In this document: positions 1 through 38,637 of the stretch, piece by piece
Layout: each line of letters opens with the position of its first letter
Position numbering within the stretch: position 1 is the stretch's first letter
Assembly: GCA_947643405.1 (NCBI GenBank)
Contig: CANRVY010000005.1
Location: 103-64,102, forward strand
Reading direction: 5' to 3'
DNA: 64,000 nucleotides
Source of the DNA: an uncultured Mycoplasmatota bacterium
GTDB taxonomy: Bacteria > Bacillota_I > Bacilli_A > RF39 > UBA660
Notes under the pieces: generated by a model
Told to the model about the DNA's origin: nothing
The model's database searches: none
Seen by the model: only the letters and a program-made list of their open reading frames with translations
Position numbers and translations under genes: made by a program

Positions 1-2253
1 TTGGTGTTGTTGTATCTATCTTACTTACTGTTACACTCTTTGATGCTGATACTCTTCCTACTCCATCTTTCGCCCATAAATAATATGTTCCATTTGCTGT
101 TATTGTTTTACTAAATGCATAACTTGTCGTTGTTGTTCCTACACTTGTCCATCCTGAAGCATTTGCTGCTGGTTTTGTACTACTTGTTGTCCACATATAA
201 TGCGTTACTCCACTATGAGCATCTGTTATTGTACTTGTCAATGTCGCATTCTTTGCCCATGCTGTTGGATTTCCACCTATCGCTCCTACCACTGGTACTG
301 TCGCATCTACTTGATATGTTCCACTACTTTCTTTCTTCGTATTATTATAGGATCCTGTTCCTGTTGCTTCTATCGTATATGTTCCTGTTGTATTTAATGT
401 AATACTTGCTGTTCCTGTATTATTACTGATTGTTCCATTTCCTGTTGTTCCATTACTTATCTTATAACTTAATGCTGTTAAGTTCTCTCCTATCTTTAAT
501 GTCGCACTGATTGTTACATTCACTGATTTTACCCATCCATTTGTCTTTATTGGCGTAAAACTTATGATTGGACTATCTGCTGCTATTACTGTAAATGTTC
601 TTGTCTTTGTTCCAATATTTCCTGCTTCATCTGTTGCTTTATATGTTATTGTTTGTGTTCCTATTACTGCACTTAATCCTCCTGTATATGTTATTGTTGG
701 TGTCACTCCACTATTATCTGTTGCTGTTACTCCTGTCATTAAATTATATCCTGCTACTTCATCTACTTTTAACGTTACATTTTCAAATACAAGTTCTGGT
801 TTAGTGGTATCTATCTTATATGTTCCACTTGTCTTTATTGTACTATTATCTGAGTTATCTATCGCTGTTATTTCTATCTCGTAATTTCCTGTACTATTTA
901 ATGAAATACTTCCTCCATTATCAATCGTTGTACTTTCTCCTCTTACTCCATCTTTGATAATGACATAACTGATTCTTTCTACTTTGATATTATCTGTTGC
1001 TGTTACTTTTACACTTTGTGATTGAACAAATTTTGTTGTTTCTTCTGGTGTTATTACTATCTCTGGTTTTGTTAAATCTTTTACAATTATTCTTCTTGTT
1101 TTTGTACTTTCATTTCCTAATCTATCCGCTACTTTATATGTAATTCTATATTCTCCTGGGATTGATAATAACTCTCCTTCTATTATTATCTCACTATTCT
1201 CTATTGTTCCATCTATATTATCTGTTACACTTACTCCTGTTAATAAATCGTATCCTAATGCTTCATTACTTTCTAATTCTACTGTTTCTGGATTTAATAC
1301 AATCTCTGGTCCTGTTCTATCGATTCTGTATGTTTTATTTACTGTATTTGTATGTCCATTATTATCTGTTGCTGTTACTTTTATCTCATAGATTCCTGTT
1401 TCATTTAATGTTATTATTTTACTATTTCCTGTTATCTTGATAATTTCTCCATCATTTATTTGATAACTAAACTCACTTACTTTATTTGGTTTTATTCCTG
1501 ATACTGTTATTAATATCTCTTGTTCTTTTACATAATTACTATTTGGTTCTGTCATAGTAATTACTGGTTTCATATCTAATACTGCTACTGTTCTTGTTAC
1601 TTCTGCTACCTTTCCATCATTCTCTGCTCTATATATTACTTCATATCTATTTTCTCTACTTGTATCTATATATTCTACTGTTTCATTATTTGATCTAATT
1701 TCTGTTGTATATTCTAGTTTTTCTCCTAGTTTAGTTCTAGCTGTTGCTCCTAATTCTGTATATGGTTCATTGATTCCTACATATATAATAGAATCTCCAT
1801 TTAGTTTAATCATTGGATCTGTTTTACTATGATTTGGAATTTCCCCTCCTGGATTTGGAGTGATTTCTATATCATTCTCAGGTCCATTCGCACAATATTC
1901 TTTATTACAAATATTATCTATATGAATTTTTCCTTGTTCATCTACATAGATAAATCCATTTCCTTCTATTTTTCCATGAATCTTAATTTTTTGATCTTTT
2001 GTTTTTTCTGCTACTGTAAGAAGCGTCAAATCTTTTTTCTCGTAAAAATATTCTCTGGGCGCATAAAAATTATCATTGCTATGGTCAATTCTTACACTTT
2101 CTATTAGCCCATCGATACTTCTTTCAAACGTTGATTTCCCGCTTTTTTTAATTGATTTTATTACAATCGGTGACACGATCAAAGCGATTACTCCTATTAT
2201 TATTAAAACTGCCAAAAGTTCAATCAAAGTAAATCCTTTTTTTGATTGCATAA
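1..2253 (-). CDS. Modular type IV pilin-like protein. Class III prepilin leader MQSKKG/FTLIELLAVLIIIGVIA (cleavage after Gly, Phe+1, Glu+5), followed by at least 6 Ig-like repeat modules with a recurring TATDN/VTDN motif. C-terminus lies beyond the window edge.
   Basis: Manual reverse-strand translation from the ATG at 2251-2253 gives a continuous ORF to position 1. RBS GGAGTG 7 nt upstream. N-terminal methylation motif G/FTLIE. About 90-aa repeats with TxTATDNxG motifs. Confidence 0.7.
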
Positions 2254-2386
2254 TATTCACTCCGTTTCTCTTTTATTCTAAGAATTATTATAGCCTAATT
2301 TATTTTCTATATTCATTTTTGTGCTCATTTGGTTTCATTAATTCTCTGATCAAAAATCCTTTTTTTATCAAAAAAAATTAAAGTTT

Positions 2387-4039
2387 TTATACTTTAATTT
2401 TCTGAAAAGATGGCTCACTTTCTTTATAAGAAGTCAATAATTCTATCCTTGAATTGGCAACACTTCTATCAAATCCTGTTTGATAACGATTTTTTAATTT
2501 TTCAATATTTCTCCACAAAATTTGTTCCATTGAAACTCCTAATTCTATAGAGGAGATTCTAGATAAAGAAACCAATAAATTACTACTCATTTCTAATACT
2601 CTTTCTTTTTCACTTGCATAAATAATTTCGCAAGCGTAGCGGACTAAGCTTTTCCACTCATCTTCAAAAGAATACCCCCCTTTATTTAAATGGTCTAAAT
2701 ATGTGATTGGAATACCATTGTCAGAATATCCTTTTAAACATTCTGGATCTTTTCTTTTGACACTTTTTATCAATGCTTCATCTGTTATTGTTTCTAGCTT
2801 TTGCTTTCTCTCACCAAATAAATACATCCCAATATCTTCAAATTCAAATTGATAAAAACTGGATAGAGAAGCCGCTAAATACCATACAATATCGCCGATT
2901 TCTACTTGTAGATTTTGAAGGAGTTTTTGCTTACTTGTCTCATCTAAATTATGCGTTTTATATTTCTTAAAAGAATCAATTAATTCTCCTACCTCTCCTA
3001 TGATTCCCATTTCTCCATTCATTTTTTTTACAGAATCACTTGCAAAATGATTCATAGTTCTTTTCGCAAGTTCCCCATAATGCTTAAATGTAAGATTACT
3101 TTGTTCCATAAAGTCAACCATTTTTTGTCCCAAACATCCACCTTTGCAAATATCAAAATTAGAACAAGACATACATTCTCCATTTACACAAGTTTTAAAA
3201 TTACGGACATTGTTAAAATATTCTGAATCATAAATTTCTGCTAATGTATGTTCATAAATATTTCCTCCAAATCCTAAATAATCAAAATATTTCATAGCAT
3301 CACATGGATATACTCTTCCATCAAATCCTACTATCATCGTTTGTTCAGCAGCACTACAAGGAGTATGACTAATTCCTAGAAAATTCCAAGGACTTCCAAG
3401 CCTAATTTTTTCTCCGTATTTTTTTCTTAATTCTATGATTTTTTCTTTAAACCACAACAGCTCTTCTCTTGATAAAAGCAAATCTCTTGTTCCTCTTCCA
3501 TGTGGTACAAATCTTAAAAAAGATAAATTGGTAATTTGATTAGAAGACAATCCGAAAAATAATTTGGAGACATCATCAATATCGTGAACAGTTTCTGTTG
3601 TTATTGCATGATGAAAACCTAGCCTAATTCTTGCTTGCTTCAATAATTCAGGAAAAAAATCTTGAAGTCTTTCTAATGTTACAATATTATCTCTTGTCAA
3701 ATGATAAGTTGTTGAATATATCATTTCATCTAGTCCATATAAGACTAAATTTTTAATTTTGTTGATACTTTCTTGTTCTGGATTACACATAGTATAAAGT
3801 TTCGTTTTTAATCCATTTCTATGTGCTTCCGCAATTACTTCTTCAATATCTGGATATAAAGTTGCCTCTCCTCCAGTAAATACAATACTAGAAGCTTTTA
3901 ATAAGACCGCTTCATGAATCACTCTCTTTACAAGTTCTTTATCCAAATATTGGAAGTTAACCTCTTTTGCTTCACTTGAACAATGTGAACACCATCTTTT
4001 GCATTCTTCTGTCACTTCAATCTTTACTTCTTTTATCAT
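2387..4039 (-). CDS. Radical SAM enzyme with SPASM/twitch Cys-rich domain fused to a C-terminal tandem MazG-like NTP pyrophosphohydrolase-like region
   Basis: CX3CX2C (CKRWCSHC) near the N-terminus and a GGEATL SAM-binding motif. CX2CX5CX3C (CMSCSNFDICKGGC) SPASM-like motif. C-terminal EVGELIDSF...EIGDIVWYL and EQILWRNIEKLKNRY resemble MazG EExxE and KL.xR motifs. Confidence 0.6.
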   Translation of the reverse strand: MIKEVKIEVTEECKRWCSHCSSEAKEVNFQYLDKELVKRVIHEAVLLKASSIVFTGGEATLYPDIEEVIAEAHRNGLKTKLYTMCNPEQESINKIKNLVLYGLDEMIYSTTYHLTRDNIVTLERLQDFFPELLKQARIRLGFHHAITTETVHDIDDVSKLFFGLSSNQITNLSFLRFVPHGRGTRDLLLSREELLWFKEKIIELRKKYGEKIRLGSPWNFLGISHTPCSAAEQTMIVGFDGRVYPCDAMKYFDYLGFGGNIYEHTLAEIYDSEYFNNVRNFKTCVNGECMSCSNFDICKGGCLGQKMVDFMEQSNLTFKHYGELAKRTMNHFASDSVKKMNGEMGIIGEVGELIDSFKKYKTHNLDETSKQKLLQNLQVEIGDIVWYLAASLSSFYQFEFEDIGMYLFGERKQKLETITDEALIKSVKRKDPECLKGYSDNGIPITYLDHLNKGGYSFEDEWKSLVRYACEIIYASEKERVLEMSSNLLVSLSRISSIELGVSMEQILWRNIEKLKNRYQTGFDRSVANSRIELLTSYKESEPSFQKIKV

Positions 4040-7265: not shown

Positions 7266-7970
7266 TTATCCCAAAAAATTAAGTAGAAATGGTCCTAAAA
7301 TAAGAATCATAATCAATGGTACCACAAATAATACTGATATTATACTTATTTTATTTGGGATTTTGTTAATTTGTCCTTTGATTTCTAATATTTGTTTATC
7401 TCTTAGAAACGCAATCTGATTATACATTGTATCCAAAATACTATTTCCAAAAATATTCGTTTGTGTAATATTTAAAATAATGTTATTAACAGTTTCTGAC
7501 GGAATTCTTTTTTTCATATCTTCTAATGCTTCTAATAAAGATTTTCCAAAATGAACTTCTAATAATGCTCTTTTAAATTCATCTGATAATTCTGACTTCA
7601 CATTAGCTACTGTAACTTCTAAAGAATTTTCAAGATTTCTTCCAGATTCTAAGGTCAAGGTTAAAATTTCAAAAAAATATAAAGCTTCATGATCAAGTTT
7701 TCGAATGCGCATCTTTAAGGGTTTTGTGATAATCAAATAATAGTATGCATAGTACCAACCAAGTGTAATCGCAGGTGCAAAAATATAAGCATGTTTTGAT
7801 TCATATAATACAACTAAAAATGCAATCAATGAAGAAAGCAATTGAAGATTAATGAATGCTGTTGCATCAAATTTTGATTTTCCACCTAGCATATCTATCT
7901 GCATTTGAATTCTATCTAAATCTTTTTCACGATAAATTTTTCGAATAATATTATTTCTCAAGCCCATCAC
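7266..7970 (-). CDS. Tad/Cpa pilus assembly inner-membrane protein, TadC-like (T2SSF domain)
   Basis: 234 aa with two terminal TM segments and a central soluble domain. Sits in the operon downstream of tadB/tadA homologues. Confidence 0.6.
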   Translation of the reverse strand: MMGLRNNIIRKIYREKDLDRIQMQIDMLGGKSKFDATAFINLQLLSSLIAFLVVLYESKHAYIFAPAITLGWYYAYYYLIITKPLKMRIRKLDHEALYFFEILTLTLESGRNLENSLEVTVANVKSELSDEFKRALLEVHFGKSLLEALEDMKKRIPSETVNNIILNITQTNIFGNSILDTMYNQIAFLRDKQILEIKGQINKIPNKISIISVLFVVPLIMILILGPFLLNFLG

Positions 7971-9490
7971 ATCCTAACCGCCATAATTTTTCTGACACAG
8001 ATAATATAAATAACATATAAAATAACAATAAGAAAAGATAACATAATTCCAAGTGGTGTTGTAAAAAAAGGTAAGAAATAATCTGGATTGATAACACTTA
8101 CAAAAATTGTAAATAAAACAGGAACGCAGAATAATACATACATAATCATTTTAGAACTACTAGTAAGTGACTCTAATTCTAACCATAATTTCTTTTTACT
8201 AAATAATGATTCTTCAATAGAAGAAAATACCTTAATAATATTTCCTCCTGTTTTATTTAAAATACTTAAAGAAGCTGTTAGATAATTCACTTCTTCTAAT
8301 TTAATTCGATCAGCAAATCTACCAAAAACTACATCAACAGAGAGTCCATAAGAAAGTTCTGCACGCATTTTTTTGAATTCTTTTGCAATTGCTCCATCTA
8401 ATTCAGTCATTACGAGTTCAATTGCTTGTGTGATACTTCTTCCAGATTTAAATGCATTATTCATAATAATAATGGCTTGTAATAAATCATTTTCAATATG
8501 TTTTCGGTGCAATTTATGTTTTGAAATATATAAAATATCTGGGACAAAGAAGCCAAATAGAAATGGAAAAACGATTTCATAAGAATTCATAAGTTCTATT
8601 TGTAAAGTAGACGAAATAATTGCAATAACAACAAATAAAATAGCGATTAATATTTTGGCTGATACAAAATCTATTCCTGTTCTATTTTCGTCTCCCATAA
8701 TTCCAACATATTTCTCATATCGATTTGAATATTTTTTTAAAAAAACAGACTTTGAAACATATTTACTGATTCGTTTTAATAGTTTTGCATAGAATTGATA
8801 ATATCGATCAAATAAAGATAACGAATGATCATTTAAAGATTCAATGCTATATTTTCTAATCCTTTGTTCTAACTTTACACTTCTTCTATAAGATAACATT
8901 GCAAAGATAATACCTACTAAGGCGGCTATAATCCCTAACTGAATCAAAATAACTCCAAAAGTATCATCCTTAACAACATTGATCATCATCGCTTTTGTCG
9001 TCGTGTTTCCAGCGCTATCAGTAACTGTATAAACTAATTTTTTTAATCCAATTTCTTCAAAATTTAGTTCTTCTACATTGGTTGTTACTTGTCCTAATAA
9101 ATCCCCATCCTGTGTGTCATAAGCCTTTACATCTGCCATAGGATAAAGAATAGATCCGACTCTCATTTTTAAAGAGTCACTTCCTAATATAATAACTGGA
9201 GCATCTTTATCTATTTTATAAACTCCACTTTCTATTTCTGTTTTTCGATTGTAATAATCATAGGATTCTATTTTGATTTGGTAAGTTCCTGATTCATCTA
9301 ATACAATATTAACTGGTTTTTCTCCATCAATACTTTCACTACTACTTGGAATTCCATTTTTTAAAACTGTATAGGTATACCGCATTACTAAGCTATCAGG
9401 AGTATATGTAATTGTTAAATCTTGATTTGTCGGCTTTTCTTGAGCTTCCAAATTAAAACCAGTTTCTCCCAAATGTGGCACTAGAATCAC
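7967..9490 (-). CDS. TadB-like T2SSF-domain membrane protein with an additional N-terminal Ig-like (DUF5011-like) domain
   Basis: N-terminal roughly 190 aa with a KAYDTQDGDLLGQV motif (Ig-like/DUF5011-type), then TM segments and a T2SSF-like region. Overlaps neighbours by 4 bp (operon). Confidence 0.55.
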   Translation of the reverse strand: MILVPHLGETGFNLEAQEKPTNQDLTITYTPDSLVMRYTYTVLKNGIPSSSESIDGEKPVNIVLDESGTYQIKIESYDYYNRKTEIESGVYKIDKDAPVIILGSDSLKMRVGSILYPMADVKAYDTQDGDLLGQVTTNVEELNFEEIGLKKLVYTVTDSAGNTTTKAMMINVVKDDTFGVILIQLGIIAALVGIIFAMLSYRRSVKLEQRIRKYSIESLNDHSLSLFDRYYQFYAKLLKRISKYVSKSVFLKKYSNRYEKYVGIMGDENRTGIDFVSAKILIAILFVVIAIISSTLQIELMNSYEIVFPFLFGFFVPDILYISKHKLHRKHIENDLLQAIIIMNNAFKSGRSITQAIELVMTELDGAIAKEFKKMRAELSYGLSVDVVFGRFADRIKLEEVNYLTASLSILNKTGGNIIKVFSSIEESLFSKKKLWLELESLTSSSKMIMYVLFCVPVLFTIFVSVINPDYFLPFFTTPLGIMLSFLIVILYVIYIICVRKIMAVRM

Positions 9491-10822
9491 CTACTTTCTA
9501 TCAAATATATCCATAAGAGTATTAATTCCTCTTGATTTTATTGTTTTATAAACATTTGGAATACGATCATGTAAAATGAACTCCCCTAATACGTCTCCAT
9601 TTTCTTTCACACCATCTTGTCTAAAAGTAAAAATCTCTTCCATTTTAATTGCATTATCCTCTATTCCAGTTATTTCACAAATGCTTGTTACTTTTCTTCT
9701 TCCATCTGTTAATCTGGATACTTGAACAACAATATTAATAGCTCCTTCAATATATTCACGAATAGCTCTAATTGGAATTTCCATACCAGCCATCAATACC
9801 ATAGTTTCTAAACGATTTAATGCATCAAGTGGACTATTGGCATGCATTGTTGTTAAAGACCCGTTATGCCCAGTATTCATTGCTTGTAACATATCAAAAG
9901 CCTCTTTCCCACGAACTTCTCCAACAATAATACGGTCTGGTCTCATACGAAGAGAGTTAATTACCAAATCTCGAATTGTAATAGCTCCTTCCCCTTCATA
10001 ATTGGTTAATCTTGTTTCTAGTGAGATAACATGCTCTTGTTCCAATCTAAGTTCAGCCGCATCCTCAATTGTAATAATTCTCTCATTTGGAGAAATAAAA
10101 GAAGATAATACATTTAAAAGAGTTGTTTTTCCACTTCCTGTTCCACCACAAATAATAATGTTTAGTTTTGCTTCTACGCATGCTTCTAAAAATCTAGCCA
10201 TATATGGAGTAAGTGCTCCTGTTCTTAAAAAGTCCTCAATGTTTGCTAATTCTTCTTTAAATTTACGAATTGTTAAAACTGGCCCATTTAAGGAAAGAGG
10301 CGGAATAACCGCATTTAGTCTAGAACCATCTACAAGCCTTGCATCGACCATTGGATTTGCTGTATCAATTGTTCTTCCAAGTGGTTGAATCATCCTTTGA
10401 ATCGTCCTTAAAATATGATCTTCATTGATGAAAGAAATACTGTTGTCTCTTACAACACGACCTTCCAATTCAATATAAATTTCGTCTTTTCCATTTACCA
10501 TAATTTCTGTAATATCACGGTCTTCCAATAACTCTGTTAATGGCCCATTTCCACTGATTTCATTATCAATCAAGTTATATAAGTAACTTCTTTCAACATT
10601 TGATAAATCATATCCATCTATGGTTTTATCAATTTCTGTTTTCACAAAATCAGTCATATCTCTTGCTTTGGTAATATTATTATCAATTAAATTTTGAATG
10701 ATTTTAGTACGAAGTTCATCTAACAATATTTTATTAGGAAATGCTTCATAATCTGAAACATAAGCAACTTCTGGAGTTTCTATTTGAACGTCAAATTCTT
10801 CAACAAATTTTTTCTTTGCCAT
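9491..10822 (-). CDS. tadA: Tad/Cpa pilus secretion ATPase (CpaF/TadA family, type II/IV secretion NTPase)
   Basis: Walker A IICGGTGSGKTTLLN, a His-box region, and length 443 aa typical of CpaF/TadA. Confidence 0.85.
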   Translation of the reverse strand: MAKKKFVEEFDVQIETPEVAYVSDYEAFPNKILLDELRTKIIQNLIDNNITKARDMTDFVKTEIDKTIDGYDLSNVERSYLYNLIDNEISGNGPLTELLEDRDITEIMVNGKDEIYIELEGRVVRDNSISFINEDHILRTIQRMIQPLGRTIDTANPMVDARLVDGSRLNAVIPPLSLNGPVLTIRKFKEELANIEDFLRTGALTPYMARFLEACVEAKLNIIICGGTGSGKTTLLNVLSSFISPNERIITIEDAAELRLEQEHVISLETRLTNYEGEGAITIRDLVINSLRMRPDRIIVGEVRGKEAFDMLQAMNTGHNGSLTTMHANSPLDALNRLETMVLMAGMEIPIRAIREYIEGAINIVVQVSRLTDGRRKVTSICEITGIEDNAIKMEEIFTFRQDGVKENGDVLGEFILHDRIPNVYKTIKSRGINTLMDIFDRK

Positions 10823-10831
10823 AAATTCCTC

Positions 10832-11593
10832 CTATTTTTTATCTTTCATTAAGGATTCTGCTATATTTTTAAAACTATCCATTGTTTTCTTATATTTAGA
10901 AGCAATGCCTTTTTGGAGTGTTAAAATATTGCCTTCTAATATATATTTGTCTATATTTTTTAAATAAAAGTTTTTTGGAATTACATAATCAATGTTCTCT
11001 TTTAAAATATTTCTCACATCATATTTTGAGAACGGTTCTTTTCCTGGATGAGTGGATTCATTCAAAATGATTTTGTAATTATCTTGTTCCATATCTTTAT
11101 GAATGGCAATTCTAGTTGCCATGTTTTTTAAGTTAGATGGATCATTGTTGATGACATACAATACTTGATCACTTGCATCTAAAGCTACTAAGGTAATATC
11201 ATTTAAAAAATGGTTGGTATCTATTAAAATAACATCATACCTGTAAATTACTTTTGATAGTACAACCGAAATGTATTTACTCCCTATTTTACTTGCATTT
11301 CTAGGATCTTTTGGAGAAGGAATTACATCAATGTAGTCGTTATATTTTACTAAATATCTGTCGATAATTTCAAAACGATTGCTGTTTAGATCATCTACTA
11401 ACCTATAAATATCTTGTTCATTTGGAATGTTTAAAGAAAGAGCAATTGCTCCACCATATAAGTCTAAATCAATAATTAATACTTTCTTTTTTTGAAGGCT
11501 AAAAATACCTGCTAGATTTAAAAGTGTTGTTGTTTTTCCTGTTCCACCTTTTACAGAAGCAACTGTAAATATTTTTGCTTTTTCTAATGCCAT
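10832..11593 (-). CDS. TadZ/CpaE-like MinD/ParA-family P-loop ATPase
   Basis: Deviant Walker A VKGGTGKTTTLLNLAG near the N-terminus. Position immediately upstream of tadA. Confidence 0.7.
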   Translation of the reverse strand: MALEKAKIFTVASVKGGTGKTTTLLNLAGIFSLQKKKVLIIDLDLYGGAIALSLNIPNEQDIYRLVDDLNSNRFEIIDRYLVKYNDYIDVIPSPKDPRNASKIGSKYISVVLSKVIYRYDVILIDTNHFLNDITLVALDASDQVLYVINNDPSNLKNMATRIAIHKDMEQDNYKIILNESTHPGKEPFSKYDVRNILKENIDYVIPKNFYLKNIDKYILEGNILTLQKGIASKYKKTMDSFKNIAESLMKDKK

Positions 11594-11594
11594 A

Positions 11595-11972
11595 TTATCC
11601 CTCTTTCTTAATTCTTTTCTCTCCGTTTATAACTTCTCCTTGATATGATAATTTTAAAATCTGATTTTTAGGTAGAAAAATGGTATCTATTCGTTTTTCT
11701 ACCCTTACATAAACTTTATCATCTTTAATTTCAATTCTAAGTTCATAAATATCTTTGATATTTTCCTTTAATAGATTCGTCATATTAATCTTTAAAACGG
11801 TTTCTTCTTCATTTATATGGTCGAGTGCATAACCAATAGAATCTGCAATGGCATGTTCCATTTTTCTTTTTTCGTTATAAGCAAGTCCTAAATCTACAAT
11901 TAAGCCAACCAATAACAGTAAAAATGGCAATAAGATTAAAAACAGCACAAGGACTTGTCCTTTTTTATTCAT
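11595..11972 (-). CDS. TadE/TadG-like pseudopilin (Flp-type prepilin leader, MNKKG/QVLVLF)
   Basis: Short charged leader ending in Gly followed by a hydrophobic helix. 125 aa. Confidence 0.55.
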   Translation of the reverse strand: MNKKGQVLVLFLILLPFLLLLVGLIVDLGLAYNEKRKMEHAIADSIGYALDHINEEETVLKINMTNLLKENIKDIYELRIEIKDDKVYVRVEKRIDTIFLPKNQILKLSYQGEVINGEKRIKKEG

Positions 11973-12300
11973 TTGATATCACCCTGCTCGCCTTGATTTG
12001 ATAGCTCTTCCCTAAGATCCGATTAAGTCCTGGTGTATTCACTACTACTTTTTTTGACAAGGTGATCGTAGTTGTTGTACTTTTGGTTTCTATATTTTTT
12101 GTCAATTCTTTCTGTTTTACATAGTAATCTACTTCAGTCATTTTATTCTGTCTTACTAATTCAACTACATAATCTAAGTCATTTTCTAATGTATACTCTT
12201 TATAAAGAATATTTCCAAAGTCTATTGCTCCTAATATTAATAGCAATAAAACTGGTAATATTATAATAAATTCGACTAATGCTTGCCCTTTATTCTTCAT
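11965..12300 (-). CDS. TadE-like pseudopilin / Flp-type pilin-like protein (MKNKG/QALVEF, Glu+5 and aromatic +6)
   Basis: G/XXXXE(F/Y) Flp/TadE-type processing motif, hydrophobic N-terminal helix, 111 aa. First gene of the tad operon. Confidence 0.55.
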   Translation of the reverse strand: MKNKGQALVEFIIILPVLLLLILGAIDFGNILYKEYTLENDLDYVVELVRQNKMTEVDYYVKQKELTKNIETKSTTTTITLSKKVVVNTPGLNRILGKSYQIKASRVISNE

Positions 12301-12385
12301 CTTACCACACTCTCATATTCTATATAAAATTATATCAAATAATCACTATTACGACAAGAAAAAGTTTGGTTTTACCCAAACTTCT

Positions 12386-12973
12386 TTAGTCCGTAAGTGG
12401 AGCATAAGCAATAAATCGTTTTACTTTCTGTTTTTCATCAAGTTCTATAGTTGCTTTCGATAAAGCAATAGCAGTATGCATTAGCTCTACATCAAGTTCT
12501 TTTATATGATAAATTCCATTTTCTTGATAAGCATGGTTTGAATCTGTATAAATTTCTATAAGTTCTTTTTTTGTTAGCTCACAATGAATAACTGGTTTTC
12601 GATAGTCTTCATAGTCTTCTTTTAAAACAATTTCTTTTAATAAATTATCAAATACATAACATTTTCCTTGATAGAAAAATTCTACCCATCCATGATTGTA
12701 ATCACTATTTGGTCTTTCCATGTTTGGAAACATTTTTTGATAAAGAAATCCTAATTCATTCCCAACATCGATTCGTCCTCTAATTAGTTTATCTGTATCT
12801 TCTAACCCCATAATTGCCCATGCGCTATAATAGTAACAAATCTGCTGATATCGATAACCTAAAAACTTTTCAAAAGATTCTATTCCATAAGGGGAAGGTC
12901 TTCTATCTATGAATACTTTTTTAGTTTGTTCAAAAAAATATTCATTGACTGTTAAATGCTGAATGGTTGACAT
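12386..12973 (-). CDS. Hypothetical protein (195 aa)
   Basis: ORF only, with no recognisable motif. Confidence 0.4.
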   Translation of the reverse strand: MSTIQHLTVNEYFFEQTKKVFIDRRPSPYGIESFEKFLGYRYQQICYYYSAWAIMGLEDTDKLIRGRIDVGNELGFLYQKMFPNMERPNSDYNHGWVEFFYQGKCYVFDNLLKEIVLKEDYEDYRKPVIHCELTKKELIEIYTDSNHAYQENGIYHIKELDVELMHTAIALSKATIELDEKQKVKRFIAYAPLTD

Positions 12974-12982
12974 ATTTTCTCC

Positions 12983-13609
12983 CTAATTTTTATAAACATA
13001 TTGATTGCCTTCACTATGGTCTACAATTGGGATATCCAAACCTAAATTATTACAGAAAGAAGATAATTCTTCTGCATACCAATCATCATCTTCTCCTTGT
13101 AAAAGCATTTGAAAGCCAGGAATTCCAATTGCTTTAATCATAGAAGCTGGAACACTTCCATTTACTTGATATTCATTTCTTGCATAACTATAAAAATTAT
13201 GAAGACCTTTTCGCTCACTCAGCTCCAGCCATTCTCCATAAGGTACATAAATTGTTTTATAGGCTTCTACCATTGGAGATACAATGATAGTCATATTAGG
13301 TTTTATAAACGTTTCAAATTCTAGATCTCCAAATCCCTCTTTTTCTAATAAAGAAATACGTTTTCCATCATTACAATTATCACTATAAGAAAAATATCCT
13401 GAGAGTTGATTTCTTGGAAGTAATCCTTGTTTTAAAATTTTTTTTACTATTTCTAATTGTTCTTGATAACTACCAAATCGAATACCATGATATAGATAAA
13501 GATTATCAAAATAAAGTGGTAGGTCTTCTCTTACATTTGGATGTATGGTAGAAAATAATTCCATTTTTAATTCTTCTAATTCTTTTATTTTTTGTTCTGT
13601 TAGTCTCAT
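12983..13609 (-). CDS. Hypothetical protein (208 aa)
   Basis: ORF only. Confidence 0.4.
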   Translation of the reverse strand: MRLTEQKIKELEELKMELFSTIHPNVREDLPLYFDNLYLYHGIRFGSYQEQLEIVKKILKQGLLPRNQLSGYFSYSDNCNDGKRISLLEKEGFGDLEFETFIKPNMTIIVSPMVEAYKTIYVPYGEWLELSERKGLHNFYSYARNEYQVNGSVPASMIKAIGIPGFQMLLQGEDDDWYAEELSSFCNNLGLDIPIVDHSEGNQYVYKN

Positions 13610-13658
13610 AGCATCACTTCTTTCTTGGGGGTTATTCTATATTACTTTGAATAAGATG

Positions 13659-14117
13659 TCAAGAATGATTATCCTCTATGATGTTATTAGAATTTTTATT
13701 TAATAGGGAACATATGACATTGAAATGTTGAATTATATCACTATTTGATACAGAAGAACAATCAATAGATATTCCAAATTTTTTATCTGCACTGTTATTA
13801 ATCTTACTTAAAACTTTCGCTTCCCTATCCCCTATTTTGTATATATCAACAGTGCAATTTTCATATTCGTATATATGTAACTCTTTTTTATAAATTCTTA
13901 TTAATTTATCTAAATCAATATCAATTATTTTATCCTTTGTAATATAGAATTCAAATTCAATCAAATCAATATTAAAACAAATGTCTCCCTTATCCTCTAC
14001 TGATATTACTGGCATATAGTATTTTTGTCTATAATATTCTCCATTAATATTTATAAAATGATTATTATATGATTGAAAAGTTGTTTTATAATGTAATTCA
14101 TTTAATTTTATATTCAA
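13659..14117 (-). CDS. Hypothetical protein (152 aa)
   Basis: ORF only, very AT-rich. Confidence 0.35.
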   Translation of the reverse strand: MNIKLNELHYKTTFQSYNNHFININGEYYRQKYYMPVISVEDKGDICFNIDLIEFEFYITKDKIIDIDLDKLIRIYKKELHIYEYENCTVDIYKIGDREAKVLSKINNSADKKFGISIDCSSVSNSDIIQHFNVICSLLNKNSNNIIEDNHS

Positions 14118-14331: not shown

Positions 14332-14892
14332 TTAAGCTTTTACATTTTTATTTTTACGAACTAATACAATCATTAATCCTAATGATAAAAGAGCTGCTCC
14401 AGCTAATGGGAATACATAAGCTACGTCTCCAGTATTTGGACTACTTGGCGCACCCTTTTTCTTATATTTGATACATAATGAATGCGCTACATCAGCAACA
14501 TCAGTACTCAATAAGCTATTTGCATTTGTAATATTTGAAAAAGTATAAACTCCATCTGCAGATGGTTGTACATATTGACGATCTACTAATACAGTGTCAA
14601 TCTCATATCCTTCGTTTACATTTACTTGAAATGTTTGAGTACATCCTGGATTTACTTCTACATAAAGTTGTTGACCACTCTTGATTGTAATAATGTTACT
14701 TGAACTACTATCTGCTGGTGTTACTGTACAACTATTTTTTGTTGTCGTAATTGTTCCATAGTCAATTCCACTTCCATCTTGTCCATTTATTACATCAATT
14801 TTCAAGTTTGCTGCACTTGCACTTGTTGCTCCAAGCCATAGAGAACAAAATGCAATTGCAAAAAAGCTCATCATTTTTATTGTTCTTTTCAT
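14332..14892 (-). CDS. Secreted cell-wall-anchored protein with an SPNTG sorting signal (signal peptide, then SPNTG + hydrophobic segment + RKNKNVKA tail)
   Basis: N-terminal signal peptide ending in the ASA/AN cleavage-site region (WLGATSASAANL). C-terminal SPNTG, TM segment and positively charged tail form a canonical sortase substrate architecture. SPxTG matches class B sortase motifs of Clostridia. Confidence 0.7.
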   Translation of the reverse strand: MKRTIKMMSFFAIAFCSLWLGATSASAANLKIDVINGQDGSGIDYGTITTTKNSCTVTPADSSSSNIITIKSGQQLYVEVNPGCTQTFQVNVNEGYEIDTVLVDRQYVQPSADGVYTFSNITNANSLLSTDVADVAHSLCIKYKKKGAPSSPNTGDVAYVFPLAGAALLSLGLMIVLVRKNKNVKA

Positions 14893-14969
14893 AAAACACT
14901 CTCCCTTATCTTACATTACCATTATCTAACAAATCTTTCATAATGTCAATCAGAGAATTCGACATTTTT

Positions 14970-17432
14970 CTAATTTGACACATTTTTTTCAGGAACTATA
15001 TAAGTCATCACTCTTTTTGCTACTAATGTAAAACGTTCATCTGGCTCTACATCTGTACACGTTGAAAGCGTCAAAAGATGATCTTTTGTTCCCACTTCTA
15101 ATTCACTAGAAAGAATGGTTTTTTGCTTTATTTCATCCAAATACTTTTGGAATGACTCTTCACTATTAAAGTTAATAATATGGGCTTCTTTTGAAGAATC
15201 AAATTCATAAGCTGCATAAATTTCATATTGATATGTTGCTTTTGGAGTAATAAGCCATATATATTTATGTTCTTCAAAATAAGATTCTTTTCTATATTTT
15301 TTGAGAGACCCAAACATGGTATTGTTTCGCATATTGTGGCCATACAAAATTGTATTATCTGAGCTAAAGTCTTGATTGGCACGATAATCTATAAAAATGG
15401 ATCCACTTATATTTGGCTTTTTATTATATAAATGTTTTAAATAATATTCATTGTCTTCTGCTCTTGTGATTGGATAATTAATTTCTGTATCATCAATTCT
15501 AATCCAAGCAACGATCTCATCATTAATTTCATACAACGGTTCAAAATCGACTTGTGGAATATCATCATTAATTGGAAATTCTGTCCTATCTGGATCTGGT
15601 TTGATAATTGGTAAAGGTTGGCTTTGCCCAATTTGATTTTGGATTTTTCCATAACTATCAGAAGCACTCCAATATTGCCAAACAATTCTTCCTAACAAGA
15701 ATAGTGAAATTGAAAAAATTAAAATCAAAATGCTTAGTACTGCCATATAAACTTTTTGGTTTGCAAGTTTATTCTTCAAAACTTTTTTCTGAATTGCTTT
15801 TGCTTCCTTGATATCCAAAACTTGTGTTAAGTTAAGATAAGTGCTTTCATATAAATCTGGATTGCTAAGATAACTAACAGATCTGTAAAGCATTTCTAAA
15901 TGATTGTTATAGAACTTCCACTGCTCTGGATCTTTTGCTAAATACTTACTGATTCTTTTTTGCTCTAATTCATACATTTTTGCCATATAATCATTAAACT
16001 TTGAAAGAAGCATTTCTAGTTCACTATGTGTAATGGTATGATTTCTAACACTTTTATTAATTTCCCTGACAAAATGCTCCTCAATGATTCGCTTTATTAA
16101 CCAGTCCGTTCTTGGTAATCTTGGCTTATATTCTAATAAATGAATAAATTCCTCTGACAGTTTTGATATTGTTAGAGGTATGTGCAAAATAACTTGCTCA
16201 TAATAATTTGCCAAAACTTCGCTATCTTCATCTTCGAAAATCAATTCTAATTCAGATTCATAAGCTTCTAATAATTCAACAATTTTCTTTTTTCTTCCAT
16301 CAGTTTGATATTCTAGTTTTAAAAAAGGACGATTTTCTATAATTTCTGGAGATAATAAAACAGTTTGATCTGTTAAGTCTTCTAGTGTTAAAACAAGACG
16401 ATTGGAATCATTAGATGGTTTTTCTCCTTTTATCGCTTCTATAATCTGTCTTTCATAATCTTCTATAATTTCTTTATAAAGAGAAGGCGCTACTTCTTCA
16501 AAAAAGCGAAGACGATTTATTAAACTTTGATCTACAATTTCCGTTTCAATGCTCAAATAGGAATAGTTCTCATAGAAAAAACTGGCACCTAAAATTTCTT
16601 TTACCATGTACTGCTTTTTACTTTTAATCTCTTCATATTTATTATGAGCAAAAGACTTGTATTTATATCTTTTTTCAAATAAATCAAACAAATAAGCAAA
16701 ATAAATCATATTTCCTTCTAAAGTTGGTTTTATAACACTTTCATTAATATAAATATCTGGTCCTTGATAAATAAATGGCTTCTTTTCTTCTAGTGTTACA
16801 ACATGAATGGTTTCTTCCCAACCTAATTGTCCAAGCAAGTCTAAAATCAAAAAACGAAATAATTCTGCATACATTGCTGATGATAAATCTAAATTTCTAT
16901 CTTTTTCAAAAATGACAAAAAATAAATATCGAAGATAATAATGTGGCATTTTCCTATTTTTATAAATCATTAAATAATTTAATAAATCTTTTAATTCAAA
17001 ATCATTTAAAATTCTATTTTTTTTCATTTGCTTGTGATAAAATCTTCCAACATCATCTGCTGCTTCTTCAAAATGAATTTCTTTCAAAAATTTTTGAAAT
17101 GGTTCAAATTCTTTTGGATATTGTTTAGATAAATCTAATAAATTTCTGCAAGCTGCATTTTCATAAAATTGAAATGGATTTTCTTTCATTTTTTCTAAAT
17201 AAAATCTTGTTAAAATTTTCATTGTAATCGGCAAATAACTAAAATTCTTTGTTTTTTTCATGATAAAAACTGTACTATTGAGTAATCGCTCAAATTCATT
17301 TAAATAGTACTGTTTGCTCATGCCATCACCAAAAAAAGAACAATTATCGTCTAGATTTAATAACTGTTTGCACAATGCTTCATCATCTAAAATATGTACT
17401 AATTGTTCAATTGTAGTTTTCCCCTTTTTCAT
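14970..17432 (-). CDS. Class B sortase fused to a large (roughly 550-aa) N-terminal cytoplasmic domain of unknown function. Single TM segment, then the sortase domain with catalytic TLSTC motif.
   Basis: C-terminal roughly 230 aa match the SrtB pattern (NTILYGHNM...MF..L.KY, TLSTCTD with catalytic Cys). A TM helix (VYMAVLSILILIFSISLFLLGRIVW) precedes it. The N-terminal 550 aa are helical with no recognised motif. Confidence 0.7.
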   Translation of the reverse strand: MKKGKTTIEQLVHILDDEALCKQLLNLDDNCSFFGDGMSKQYYLNEFERLLNSTVFIMKKTKNFSYLPITMKILTRFYLEKMKENPFQFYENAACRNLLDLSKQYPKEFEPFQKFLKEIHFEEAADDVGRFYHKQMKKNRILNDFELKDLLNYLMIYKNRKMPHYYLRYLFFVIFEKDRNLDLSSAMYAELFRFLILDLLGQLGWEETIHVVTLEEKKPFIYQGPDIYINESVIKPTLEGNMIYFAYLFDLFEKRYKYKSFAHNKYEEIKSKKQYMVKEILGASFFYENYSYLSIETEIVDQSLINRLRFFEEVAPSLYKEIIEDYERQIIEAIKGEKPSNDSNRLVLTLEDLTDQTVLLSPEIIENRPFLKLEYQTDGRKKKIVELLEAYESELELIFEDEDSEVLANYYEQVILHIPLTISKLSEEFIHLLEYKPRLPRTDWLIKRIIEEHFVREINKSVRNHTITHSELEMLLSKFNDYMAKMYELEQKRISKYLAKDPEQWKFYNNHLEMLYRSVSYLSNPDLYESTYLNLTQVLDIKEAKAIQKKVLKNKLANQKVYMAVLSILILIFSISLFLLGRIVWQYWSASDSYGKIQNQIGQSQPLPIIKPDPDRTEFPINDDIPQVDFEPLYEINDEIVAWIRIDDTEINYPITRAEDNEYYLKHLYNKKPNISGSIFIDYRANQDFSSDNTILYGHNMRNNTMFGSLKKYRKESYFEEHKYIWLITPKATYQYEIYAAYEFDSSKEAHIINFNSEESFQKYLDEIKQKTILSSELEVGTKDHLLTLSTCTDVEPDERFTLVAKRVMTYIVPEKNVSN

Positions 17433-30558: not shown

Positions 30559-30627
30559 TTAGTCCTTTTTCTTAAGAACTAGAACAGTATAAAATACTAT
30601 AGTTATAAATATAACTATTAATTCCAT
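30559..30627 (-). CDS. Small hydrophobic peptide MELIVIFITIVFYTVLVLKKKD (22 aa), type I toxin-like, tandem copy 1
   Basis: ATG with AAAGGA 9 nt upstream. An overlapping upstream ORF starts at the GAGGTGA RBS. TM segment plus KKKD tail. Conserved paralogues. Confidence 0.4.
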   Translation of the reverse strand: MELIVIFITIVFYTVLVLKKKD

Positions 30628-30824
30628 TGGAATTTGTCCTTTCTATAATCGTTTCAATCATAGAAATCACCTCTTCTCTATCATCTAGTGATGAAAGAAT
30701 AGAGTCTAAAAACACCTAACTATCAGAATTGTATCCATATATATCTATTATACAAGAGTATAATTATCATCGATATTTTTTTAGCTCATTTGACAAAACA
30801 AAATTACTATAGTAGAATGTATAT

Positions 30825-30943
30825 AGATGAGGTTTTCCTCATAAAATAAAAAAAGAGATACACTCTGATATTGCGTGTTAGGTGTTATCTCTATTCATTG
30901 AGTATCGAAAACACCTCTCATTGCTGATTGGTGTTTTCATTTT
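30825..30943 (+). ncRNA. Candidate small RNA (tandem copy 2)
   Basis: Promoter TTGACA at 30790-30795. Identical to copy 1. Confidence 0.4.
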
Positions 30944-30945
30944 AA

Positions 30946-31014
30946 TTAGTCCTTTTTCTTAAGAACTAGAACAGTATAAAATACTATAGTTATAAATATA
31001 ACTATTAATTCCAT
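30946..31014 (-). CDS. Small hydrophobic peptide MELIVIFITIVFYTVLVLKKKD (22 aa), tandem copy 2
   Basis: Identical to 30559..30627. Confidence 0.4.
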   Translation of the reverse strand: MELIVIFITIVFYTVLVLKKKD

Positions 31015-31182
31015 TGGAATTTGTCCTTTCTATAATCGTTTCAATCATAGAAATCACCTCTTCTCTATCATCTAGTGATGAAAGAATAGAGTTTAAAAAC
31101 ACCTAACTATCAGAATTGTATCCATATATATTATATATCATATATATCTATTATACAAGAGTGCTACTGAAAATTATTGAAT

Positions 31183-34654: not shown

Positions 34655-34885
34655 ATCCCTCCTAATAAAAAAATCACATCCAATAAGGACGTGATTTGAC
34701 GTGGTACCACCTTAATTTGTAGAACATTCTACCTTGAAACTGTAACGCGTTACCGTTATATGTTTTGCATATAAAACTCCAAGACGAATTCATAAATTGA
34801 TATCATCTATTTCCACCTACCATAGACTCTCTATTCATATCATCATTTATTACTACTTCTCTTCTTCGTTTTTCATAAACAAATT
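34655..34885 (-). promoter_or_regulatory. T-box riboswitch leader of pheST with TTGTAA-17-TACAAT promoter (34887-34915)
   Basis: Minus strand contains the AGAGAG box and the T-box sequence AAUUAAGGUGGUACCACG (UGGU bulge, N=U matching the tRNA-Phe discriminator A). Terminator AAAUCACGUCC...GGAUGUGAUUU plus U7 immediately before the RBS. Confidence 0.75.
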
Positions 34886-38346: not shown

Positions 38347-38637
38347 ACTTTCACCTCATTTATAGAATGGCACTTTTTTAAAAAAATAATCTTTTATTTG
38401 ACAAAAAGAATTCTTTATGCTAGAATTAGTCCTAATCGAAAGAGGTTGCGAAACTTATTATTATTTAACAATTACTCAGATTATTGTTGTTAAAGAAAGG
38501 AAGTTTTGCCGAAATAAAACAAGATATCTGAATCTTGCTTTATTGGGACAGCTACATAATATGGGCTGGACTGTCACAAGAGAAACTTGTGGAGTGCTTT
38601 CAAAATTATTATCATAGAAATGATTTTCTATTTTTAA

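Follow-up and report, generated by a model that had tools for sequence, protein, structure and literature searches.

A candidate giant modular type IV pilin with an Ig-like stalk and, in its full-length orthologue, a lectin-like head from an uncultured Mycoplasmatota bacterium

Introduction

Type IV pilins in which the pilin module is followed by domains not specific to type IV filaments are known as modular pilins. One such domain family is PF16403 (Bact_surface_Ig-like; NCBI name DUF5011), an immunoglobulin-like (Ig-like) family whose InterPro entry we take to be IPR032179. The survey of Raynaud et al. 2021 (PMC8179133) lists more than 1,200 modular pilins in 264 InterPro architectures, including IPR012902-IPR032179, and the pairing of a pilin with IPR032179 accounts for 3+1 proteins in its Dataset S1. 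Here we analyze a gene lying at the beginning of a 64,000-nucleotide stretch of DNA, hereafter called the window, from an uncultured Mycoplasmatota bacterium (GCA_947643405.1, contig CANRVY010000005.1, positions 103 to 64,102 of the forward strand). In our judgment, with a probability of about 60%, the product of this gene is a giant modular type IV pilin in which an Ig-like stalk carries a lectin-like head, and which is assembled into a filament and acts as an adhesin. An earlier interpretation made from the letters of the window without database searches (the sequence-only reading) had held that modular pilins are known for only a few Gram-positive type IV pili; the numbers reported in the survey contradict this.

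Two modular pilins of Streptococcus sanguinis, PilB (pilin plus von Willebrand factor A domain) and PilC (pilin plus concanavalin-like lectin), have been studied experimentally and are proposed to be pilus-tip adhesins (PMC8179133). Like these two proteins, the product of the window gene belongs to a monoderm host, has a short GF..E class III leader and combines a small pilin module with a grafted binding module; the family profile also matches the major pilin of S. sanguinis, PilE1. Unlike PilB and PilC, each of which has one grafted module, the protein described here would have eight to nine Ig-like modules and a lectin-like head (the full-length orthologue has 1192 aa), its gene does not lie in a pil operon, and it is known from sequence alone.

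Other comparable pilins come from diderm hosts. TcpB of Vibrio cholerae is a type IVb minor pilin comparable to CofB of enterotoxigenic Escherichia coli, and the genes of both lie within a pilus operon. CofB consists of a pilin module, a beta-repeat linker and a beta-sandwich head, for which exposure at the tip of the pilus is predicted (PMC8179133). The protein of the window differs from both in that they are type IVb pilins of diderms, and from CofB in that the latter has only two added domains. The same survey calls an 860-residue pilin of Candidatus Falkowbacteria, with 12 repeats, the most extreme case (PMC8179133). Like entries of that catalogue, the window gene encodes an N_methyl domain followed by repeated non-pilin domains; unlike them, its orthologue (1192 aa) and relatives (up to 1227 aa) are larger than the Falkowbacteria protein. 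The available part of the survey does not describe a design with an Ig-like stalk and a C-type-lectin-like head, nor links of modular pilins to diversity-generating retroelements (DGRs) or phase variation (PMC8179133), and we found no literature on DUF5011 coupled with a pilin.

Results

A pilin module with a class III leader

The pilin open reading frame (ORF) lies on the minus strand, with its ATG at 2251-2249 and 750 codons without a stop up to the window edge (base 2). Six-frame translation places an in-frame stop 7 codons 5' of the ATG, and the sole alternative start is a GTG three codons 5' of the ATG; because this GTG keeps the leader, a start shift that deletes the leader is impossible. 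The N-terminus reads MQSKKG/FTLIELLAVLIIIGVIALIVSPIV, with Gly-1, Phe+1 and Glu+5, and is the sole class III motif found by six-frame translation of the window. Cleavage of the leader MQSKKG (2234..2251, minus strand) is predicted after Gly6 from hidden Markov models (HMMs) and family alignments. The leader plus mature start, MQSKKG/FTLIELLAVLIIIGVIALIV, scores above the cut-offs of two curated models, namely Pfam N_methyl (PF07963; 28.6 bits, the gathering score being 21.2) and NCBIfam TIGR02532 (31.2 bits against 16.3). In family alignments of 15 and 20 members, F7, T8, L9 and E11 are invariant and G6 is nearly invariant, and the leader motif is invariant over about 70 homologues.

The structural model agrees with this assignment. 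We generated an AlphaFold prediction for residues 1-320, using an alignment of 45 family sequences (mean predicted local distance difference test score, pLDDT, of 90.5), which yielded a 51-residue helix (residues 9-59), a seven-strand beta region (66-132) and then two beta-sandwich domains. From this helix and from profile matches to solved pilins, the mature N-terminus with Phe+1 and Glu+5, together with the alpha-1 helix, is assigned to residues 7-59 (2075..2233, minus strand). The pilin module's globular beta-sheet part plus a linker is assigned to residues 60-146 (1814..2074, minus strand), where the strands at 66-132 are modeled with pLDDT of about 85-93. A cysteine pair, C115-x4-C120, closes the pilin module in a manner reminiscent of a small D-region; C120 is invariant in family alignment A1 and nearly so in family alignment A5, with the consensus ICNxEYCAN.

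The pilin module was compared with the PDB by sequence and profile, as a Foldseek search with the 320-residue model was swamped by Ig matches and uninformative for this module. The profile of the first ~146 residues retrieved Geobacter PilA-N (3e-10) and S. sanguinis PilE1 (6e-10 over residues 7-97), and also matches structures of MshA, PilA and GspG. The protein thus has the features that mark the pilin class, i.e., the leader, Gly-1/Phe+1/Glu+5, and a hydrophobic stretch running into an alpha-1 helix of about 50 residues that lies on a beta-sheet, the fold being predicted. It does not reach the cut-offs of the ComGC equivalog (NF040999; 32.7 bits against 75) or the GspG equivalog (TIGR01710; 27.3 bits against 88.85), and in both cases the N-terminal helix alone aligns.

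Alternatively, the protein might be no pilin at all: its N-terminus could be an ordinary Sec signal or membrane-spanning anchor whose likeness to a prepilin leader is accidental, or its start could be mis-assigned. We found nothing in favor of this explanation and consider it extremely improbable: it is refuted by the start context described above, by two independent curated models scoring above cut-off, by a motif invariant in some 70 homologues and by a predicted fold that is pilin-like. The sequence-only reading had named, as what would undo it, the removal of the leader by an upstream stop or a different start, which does not occur. Its assignment of a type IV pilin leader is borne out by the two curated HMMs, the AlphaFold model and the profile matches to solved type IVa pilins, and the N-terminus accordingly forms a genuine type IV pilin module.

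The stretch upstream of the gene (2260..2292, minus strand) holds putative expression signals read from the sequence, a TATAAT at 2292-2287 (about 35 nt 5') and a GGAG at 2263-2260 (8 nt before the ATG), and has the same letters in the orthologue locus L007. The promoter is only putative, since a consensus scan found no full -35/-10 pair at the pilin gene. The G+C content of the window is 28.5%.

A stalk of two alternating Ig-like subtypes

Beyond residue 146, the protein consists of domains found outside type IV filament biology as well. Module borders were set with iterated HMMs seeded with single modules, which delimit seven tandem modules in the window belonging to two subtypes, a DUF5011 type (B) and a Y_Y_Y/OmpL47-like type (A). 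All are encoded on the minus strand. Module B1 (residues 147-228; 1568..1813) is of the DUF5011/PF16403 type, found by HMM at E 1e-19, modeled by AlphaFold as a beta-sandwich with pLDDT above 92 and matched by Foldseek to tandem Ig-like proteins. It is followed by module A1 (residues 229-314; 1310..1567), of Y_Y_Y/OmpL47/PKD-like type and also modeled as a beta-sandwich (HMM 229-314, E 2e-25); A1 contains the sequence KVTATDNNG and matches Pfam Y_Y_Y (261-307), PKD_4 (228-307) and NF047446 (258-303). Module B2 (residues 315-404; 1040..1309), again of the DUF5011 type, includes the best PF16403 stretch (338-390), and its HMM match extends over 317-394, or over 319-408 by a second profile. Module A2 (residues 405-485; 797..1039) is Y_Y_Y/OmpL47-like (HMM 396-484, E 3e-27), and module B3 (residues 486-560; 572..796) is of the DUF5011/HYR type, matching Pfam HYR (504-555), Big_13 (483-555) and the iterated HMM (488-559, E 1e-10). 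Module A3 (residues 561-650; 302..571) is Y_Y_Y/OmpL47-like (HMM 561-652, E 8e-23). The last module in the window, A4 (residues 651-750; 2..301), is A-related with an HMM of its own (651-750, E 4e-40), and there the ORF runs past the window edge. The iterated profile seeded with B2 finds six of the seven modules, A-type modules among them, so that the two subtypes are related at the profile level.

The Ig-like nature of the repeats had been proposed in the sequence-only reading, together with a count of at least six modules, and both points stand, the actual number being seven. A domain search for Ig, Big and DUF5011 families, which that reading had suggested, was positive: PF16403 is matched with 77 bits over three stretches, and Y_Y_Y, Big_3_3 and an OmpL47-type domain score above their cut-offs in the repeats. 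Within residues 1-320, where structure prediction could have spoken against Ig-like repeats, AlphaFold yields beta-sandwiches. Foldseek matches of the model are to tandem Ig, FN3 and cadherin proteins (titin, NCAM, cadherin) and to the stalk adhesins SiiE, SraP and the Marinomonas ice-binding adhesin. As in SraP of Staphylococcus aureus, SiiE of Salmonella and the Marinomonas adhesin, a chain of Ig-like domains appears to extend a distal binding domain; unlike in these adhesins, which depend on a sortase or a type I secretion system, the anchor here is an N-terminal pilin.

A lectin-like head in the full-length orthologue

The window is part of ENA contig NODE_973 (66,464 bp), which ends 34 codons beyond the window edge and still inside the pilin gene; the truncation is therefore present in the assembly as well and not just in the window. 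The sequence-only reading had described a protein of more than 730 aa cut off by the window, which agrees with the 750 aa that we count up to the edge. The 34 further codons run into the next module after A4. Efforts to recover the missing 3' end were unsuccessful, as all listed contigs with the neighboring radical-SAM gene stop in or before the pilin gene and exact look-ups of other window proteins gave no match. Every listed assembly of the window species breaks inside or just before the pilin gene.

The best match to the window protein, P0001, is a 1192-aa protein that is 90% identical and is encoded on a 312-kb JGI contig with identical synteny. Relative to the window gene, P0001 has one more A4 copy (two against one; P0001 residues 651-842), a further Ig-like module (846-945) and a C-terminal domain of about 240 residues without a Pfam match. 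The difference in A4 counts between the window strain and P0001 is a module copy-number polymorphism, and together with the assembly breaks it suggests module copy-number or strain heterogeneity. When complete, the window protein should have roughly 1,100 residues. An Ig domain is about 4 nm long, so the chain of eight to nine modules would form a stalk of about 30-35 nm.

The C-terminal domain of P0001 was likened to the N-terminal C-type-lectin-like domain of the Thomasclavelia ramosa IgA protease (PDB 9qa6), with an identity of only 17%; a Bacteroides fimbrial protein and dozens of C-type lectin domains were also listed for it. In the IgA protease, this domain is described as a CTLD (C-type-lectin-like domain) core grown to double the normal size, has no known function and is dispensable for protease activity (PMC12237041). 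The head of P0001 may thus be described as a predicted enlarged lectin-like domain. Across the family, heads fall into two classes, one of the CTLD type (with sub-threshold DUF6273 matches) and one of about 390 residues (with sub-threshold FGE-sulfatase matches).

We also inspected the C-terminus of P0001 for features of sortase-dependent adhesins. It ends in ...GTGTESNPYILTK, with no LPXTG motif and no C-terminal membrane segment, and this orthologue C-terminus (...SGTGTESNPYILTK) has no Gram_pos_anchor match. The combination of a pilin module, an Ig-like stalk and a lectin-like head with no sorting signal therefore points to an adhesin anchored by its pilin rather than by LPXTG.

Relatives, putative phase variation and a diversity-generating retroelement

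A homology search returned 167 proteins at E <=1e-5, of which we examined the best 120. Most of these combine N_methyl with PF16403 and have 450-1,230 aa, and the few with names are proteins of "Bacilli bacterium" metagenome-assembled genomes (MAGs). A scan of GTDB genomes returned mostly generic pilin N-termini and one relative, in an "uncultured Tenericutes bacterium" (L012). About 100 relatives come from MAGs of uncultured low-GC Bacilli or "Tenericutes", where several paralogues are frequently found.

In one genome (L010; GCA_951801705.1), two tandem giant-pilin paralogues have G9 and G10 tracts in their leader-coding regions (L010:9920-9970 and L010:14755-14800), and in the assembly neither leader is in frame. 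For this subfamily, many gene calls in databases begin inside the alpha-1 helix. The poly-G tracts and the helix-internal starts fit slipped-strand phase variation, in which phase-OFF alleles would be expected. An A7 run in the leader codons of the window gene was likewise considered as a phase-variation signal and rejected, as it is ordinary Lys-Lys coding found in most leaders of these AT-rich genomes.

A second kind of variation was found in orthologues that are 60% identical to the window protein (the P0002-P0006 lineage; L092:13060-18330 and L095:13060-17240), which are DGR targets. Downstream of the pilin gene, both loci have two ORFs of about 120-130 aa, then a reverse transcriptase (RVT_1, 85 bits, with an IGNMSSQ motif) and finally a template-repeat-like array. 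This array is non-coding and comprises 12 units in L092 and 7 in L095, of about 105 nt each, every unit ending in GGGGTGCGCCCA; the units differ among themselves by whole-codon changes, e.g., AAC to TGG. The 3' end of the pilin gene deviates from the template units mainly at adenine sites. The variable region of L095 is accounted for by a single unit, from which it differs at 10 A sites and at 0 others over about 85 nt, and that of L092 resembles a mosaic of two template units. Across samples, the same ~35 head residues are hypervariable in this lineage and most of the remainder is about 90% identical. In the literature we came across just one multi-template DGR, with two template repeats, and the multi-unit array of this sister lineage, which lies outside the window, may be more unusual than the pilin itself.

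The window lineage was compared with DGR variable proteins of the C-type-lectin type (TvpA; the Bacteroides type V pilus tip) and differs from them in having no reverse transcriptase or template repeat nearby: there is no RVT gene within 10 kb downstream in L007, and neither the window nor L007 contains the GGGGTGCGCCCA motif, which resembles an initiation-of-mutagenic-homing site. Among the loci compared, the features of a DGR variable protein were found in L092 and L095 only. The window lineage also has no poly-G tract and no array of modular pilins. Such arrays occur in two other relatives (L094:5185-22250 and L074:3457-14200), each with five large modular pilins (650-800 aa) within about 10-22 kb; the heads in the L094 array differ, being Ig-like, Laminin_G_3 or an ALK_LTK glycine-rich domain. 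No assembly genes were found near either array. Taken together, the relatives with phase variation and those with DGR diversification point to a head that is probably exposed at the surface and under diversifying selection, and the arrays likewise point, at the level of the family, to an exposed binding function under selection.

Genomic context and the neighboring Tad locus

On the strand of the pilin, the genes leading to it are, in order, tadE-like, Tad/TadG-like, ParA/TadZ-like, CpaF/TadA ATPase, TadB, TadC, murC, a 173-aa ORF, a gene of the Impact family (encoded on the opposite strand), a radical-SAM/SPASM/MazG-like gene and the pilin gene. By Pfam matches, the Tad-type locus (tadE, tadG-like, tadZ, tadA, tadB and tadC) occupies 7266-12300 on the minus strand, or 7266-14117 if the preceding ORFs are included; these are three soluble-looking ORFs of 152 aa (weak DUF3201), 208 aa and 195 aa. 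The tadE-like protein has 111 aa and the leader MKNKG/QALVEF, and the TadG-like protein has 125 aa. Matches to PF07811/PF13400 were obtained for two Tad-type proteins, with the leaders MKNKG/QALVEF and MNKKG/QVLVLF. In the TadB platform protein (507 aa; 7967-9490, minus strand), about 150 residues at the N-terminus, ahead of the first membrane segment, consist of Ig-like modules (PF16403, 27.4 bits) with 29-35% identity to those in the pilin, and a signal peptide is not evident. Directly 5' of the pilin, with 135 nt in between, lies the gene of the radical-SAM/SPASM protein (550 aa; 2387-4039, minus strand; with a faint MazG-like C-terminal region), which is kept beside the pilin in the close orthologue and not in distant ones.

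This neighborhood raises the question of whether the pilin is a substrate of the Tad-type machine, displayed instead of or atop a Flp fiber, in which case the Tad system would present a stalked lectin adhesin of about 120 kDa. The pilin gene is 5 kb from the Tad locus in both the window species and the 90% orthologue, and TadB shares homologous Ig-like modules with the pilin, although common modules of this kind are weak evidence of a functional link. Moreover, the window contains neither a Flp pilin gene nor an A24 prepilin peptidase gene for the Tad locus: relaxed motifs retrieved the TadE-like protein, the pilin, chance ORFs and a duplicated 22-residue toxin-like peptide, and no peptidase was found by any search of the window, including a scan for the motif GxGD[VI]K. 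When TadA, TadB, TadC and TadZ were used as tblastn queries against 93 loci, together with the GxGD[VI]K scan, so as to find a linked assembly machine, matches were obtained only in unrelated phyla or Paenibacillus, and none in the window or the loci of Bacilli MAGs.

Against a Tad substrate stands the leader. Like Flp/Tad pilins and TadE/TadF, the pilin has a class III signal with Gly-1 and Glu+5; unlike them, its motif is G/FTLIEL, of the type IVa/Com/type II secretion type rather than G/xxxxEY, it has no PF07811 or PF13400 match at E <1, it is about ten times as large and its neighborhood is not conserved. The pilin gene is set apart from the Tad locus by four unrelated genes and is preceded by a ribosome-binding site of its own. 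No Tad genes lie beside the 60%-identical orthologues (L092, L095) or the relatives L010, L093 and L094, whose neighborhoods differ. We therefore regard a Tad substrate as a minor and improbable alternative. The view in the sequence-only reading that the pilin is not part of the adjacent Tad locus is supported, though not proven, by the mismatch in leader and Pfam families, the intervening genes and the loss of linkage in distant orthologues.

Other elements of the window

Further elements were noted elsewhere in the window. At 14332-17432 (minus strand), a 186-aa secreted protein with a C-terminal SPNTGD, a hydrophobic segment, a basic tail and a weak Gram_pos_anchor match is encoded beside an 820-aa protein that ends in a sortase domain, and together they may be a sortase with its dedicated substrate. 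At 30560-31060 (minus strand) there are two tandem units, with starts about 390 bp apart, each comprising a ribosome-binding site, the coding sequence of a hydrophobic peptide of 22 residues (MELIVIFITIVFYTVLVLKKKD) and, after it, a terminator-like T-rich run; these units resemble type I toxin cassettes and have no Rfam match. A T-box leader lies 5' of pheS (34682-34875, minus strand), and a lysine riboswitch (38432-38607, plus strand) lies 5' of a 228-aa ORF without a Pfam match.

Discussion

We propose that the window gene encodes an adhesive, filament-borne modular pilin. A PilD/ComC-type prepilin peptidase encoded elsewhere would cut after Gly6, upon which the hydrophobic helix would leave the membrane and enter a type IV or Com-like filament via alpha-1. 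The pilin would probably be incorporated as a low-abundance tip subunit, as argued for other bulky modular pilins such as S. sanguinis PilB and PilC, and its stalk would carry the lectin-like head past the Gram-positive wall to bind a ligand on a host, a glycan or another cell.

Several observations weigh against this proposal. No PilD, PilB/ComGA ATPase, PilC/ComGB platform or ComG genes were found in the window, none are annotated in the 10 kb past the pilin gene in L007, and none lie within 10 kb of the related genes in Bacilli MAGs; a matching assembly machine in this organism is thus assumed, as is the separate type IV pilus or Com-type machinery elsewhere that the sequence-only reading had deduced. 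Polymerization, location at the tip and the ligand are all proposed. The head is known from the orthologue alone, as the window and its contig end inside the gene. Finally, where a genome has at least five such proteins, it is harder to see every one of them as a subunit of a pilus tip.

The main alternative is that the protein is never polymerized: the class III signal and helix would serve, after cleavage, as a membrane anchor, from which the Ig-like chain would span the wall and show the head. The lack of assembly genes linked to the window gene or to any relative examined would be expected of such a protein, and the arrays, in which as many as five large modular pilins with differing heads lie together, resemble a general surface-protein repertoire more than a set of tip pilins. 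The stalk, at the length estimated from eight to nine modules, would also be on the order of the Gram-positive wall. However, Glu+5, Phe+1 and the complete globular pilin module are strictly conserved; these serve processing and filament packing and go beyond what an anchor needs. To our knowledge, all characterized proteins with the class III pilin signature are filament subunits. We consider a stalk that is anchored without polymerizing unlikely, though a good deal less so than a Tad substrate, and continue to favor a filament-borne pilin.

The gene is a large, new case of the established class of modular pilins and leaves the concept of that class unchanged. It is distinguished by its size, by its stalk of two alternating Ig-like subtypes and, in the orthologue, by a CTLD head of the type found in the IgA protease.

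If the proposal holds, the protein shows how far the grafting of modules onto pilins goes, with a pilin of 1,100-1,200 residues that mimics sortase-anchored adhesins, and it would offer a useful test case for how the type IV assembly machinery and the Gram-positive wall let bulky subunits pass. The relatives varied by DGR and by poly-G tracts would mark the head as a probable determinant of attachment, and modular pilins would then be a major and variable part of the surface repertoire of uncultured low-GC Bacilli.

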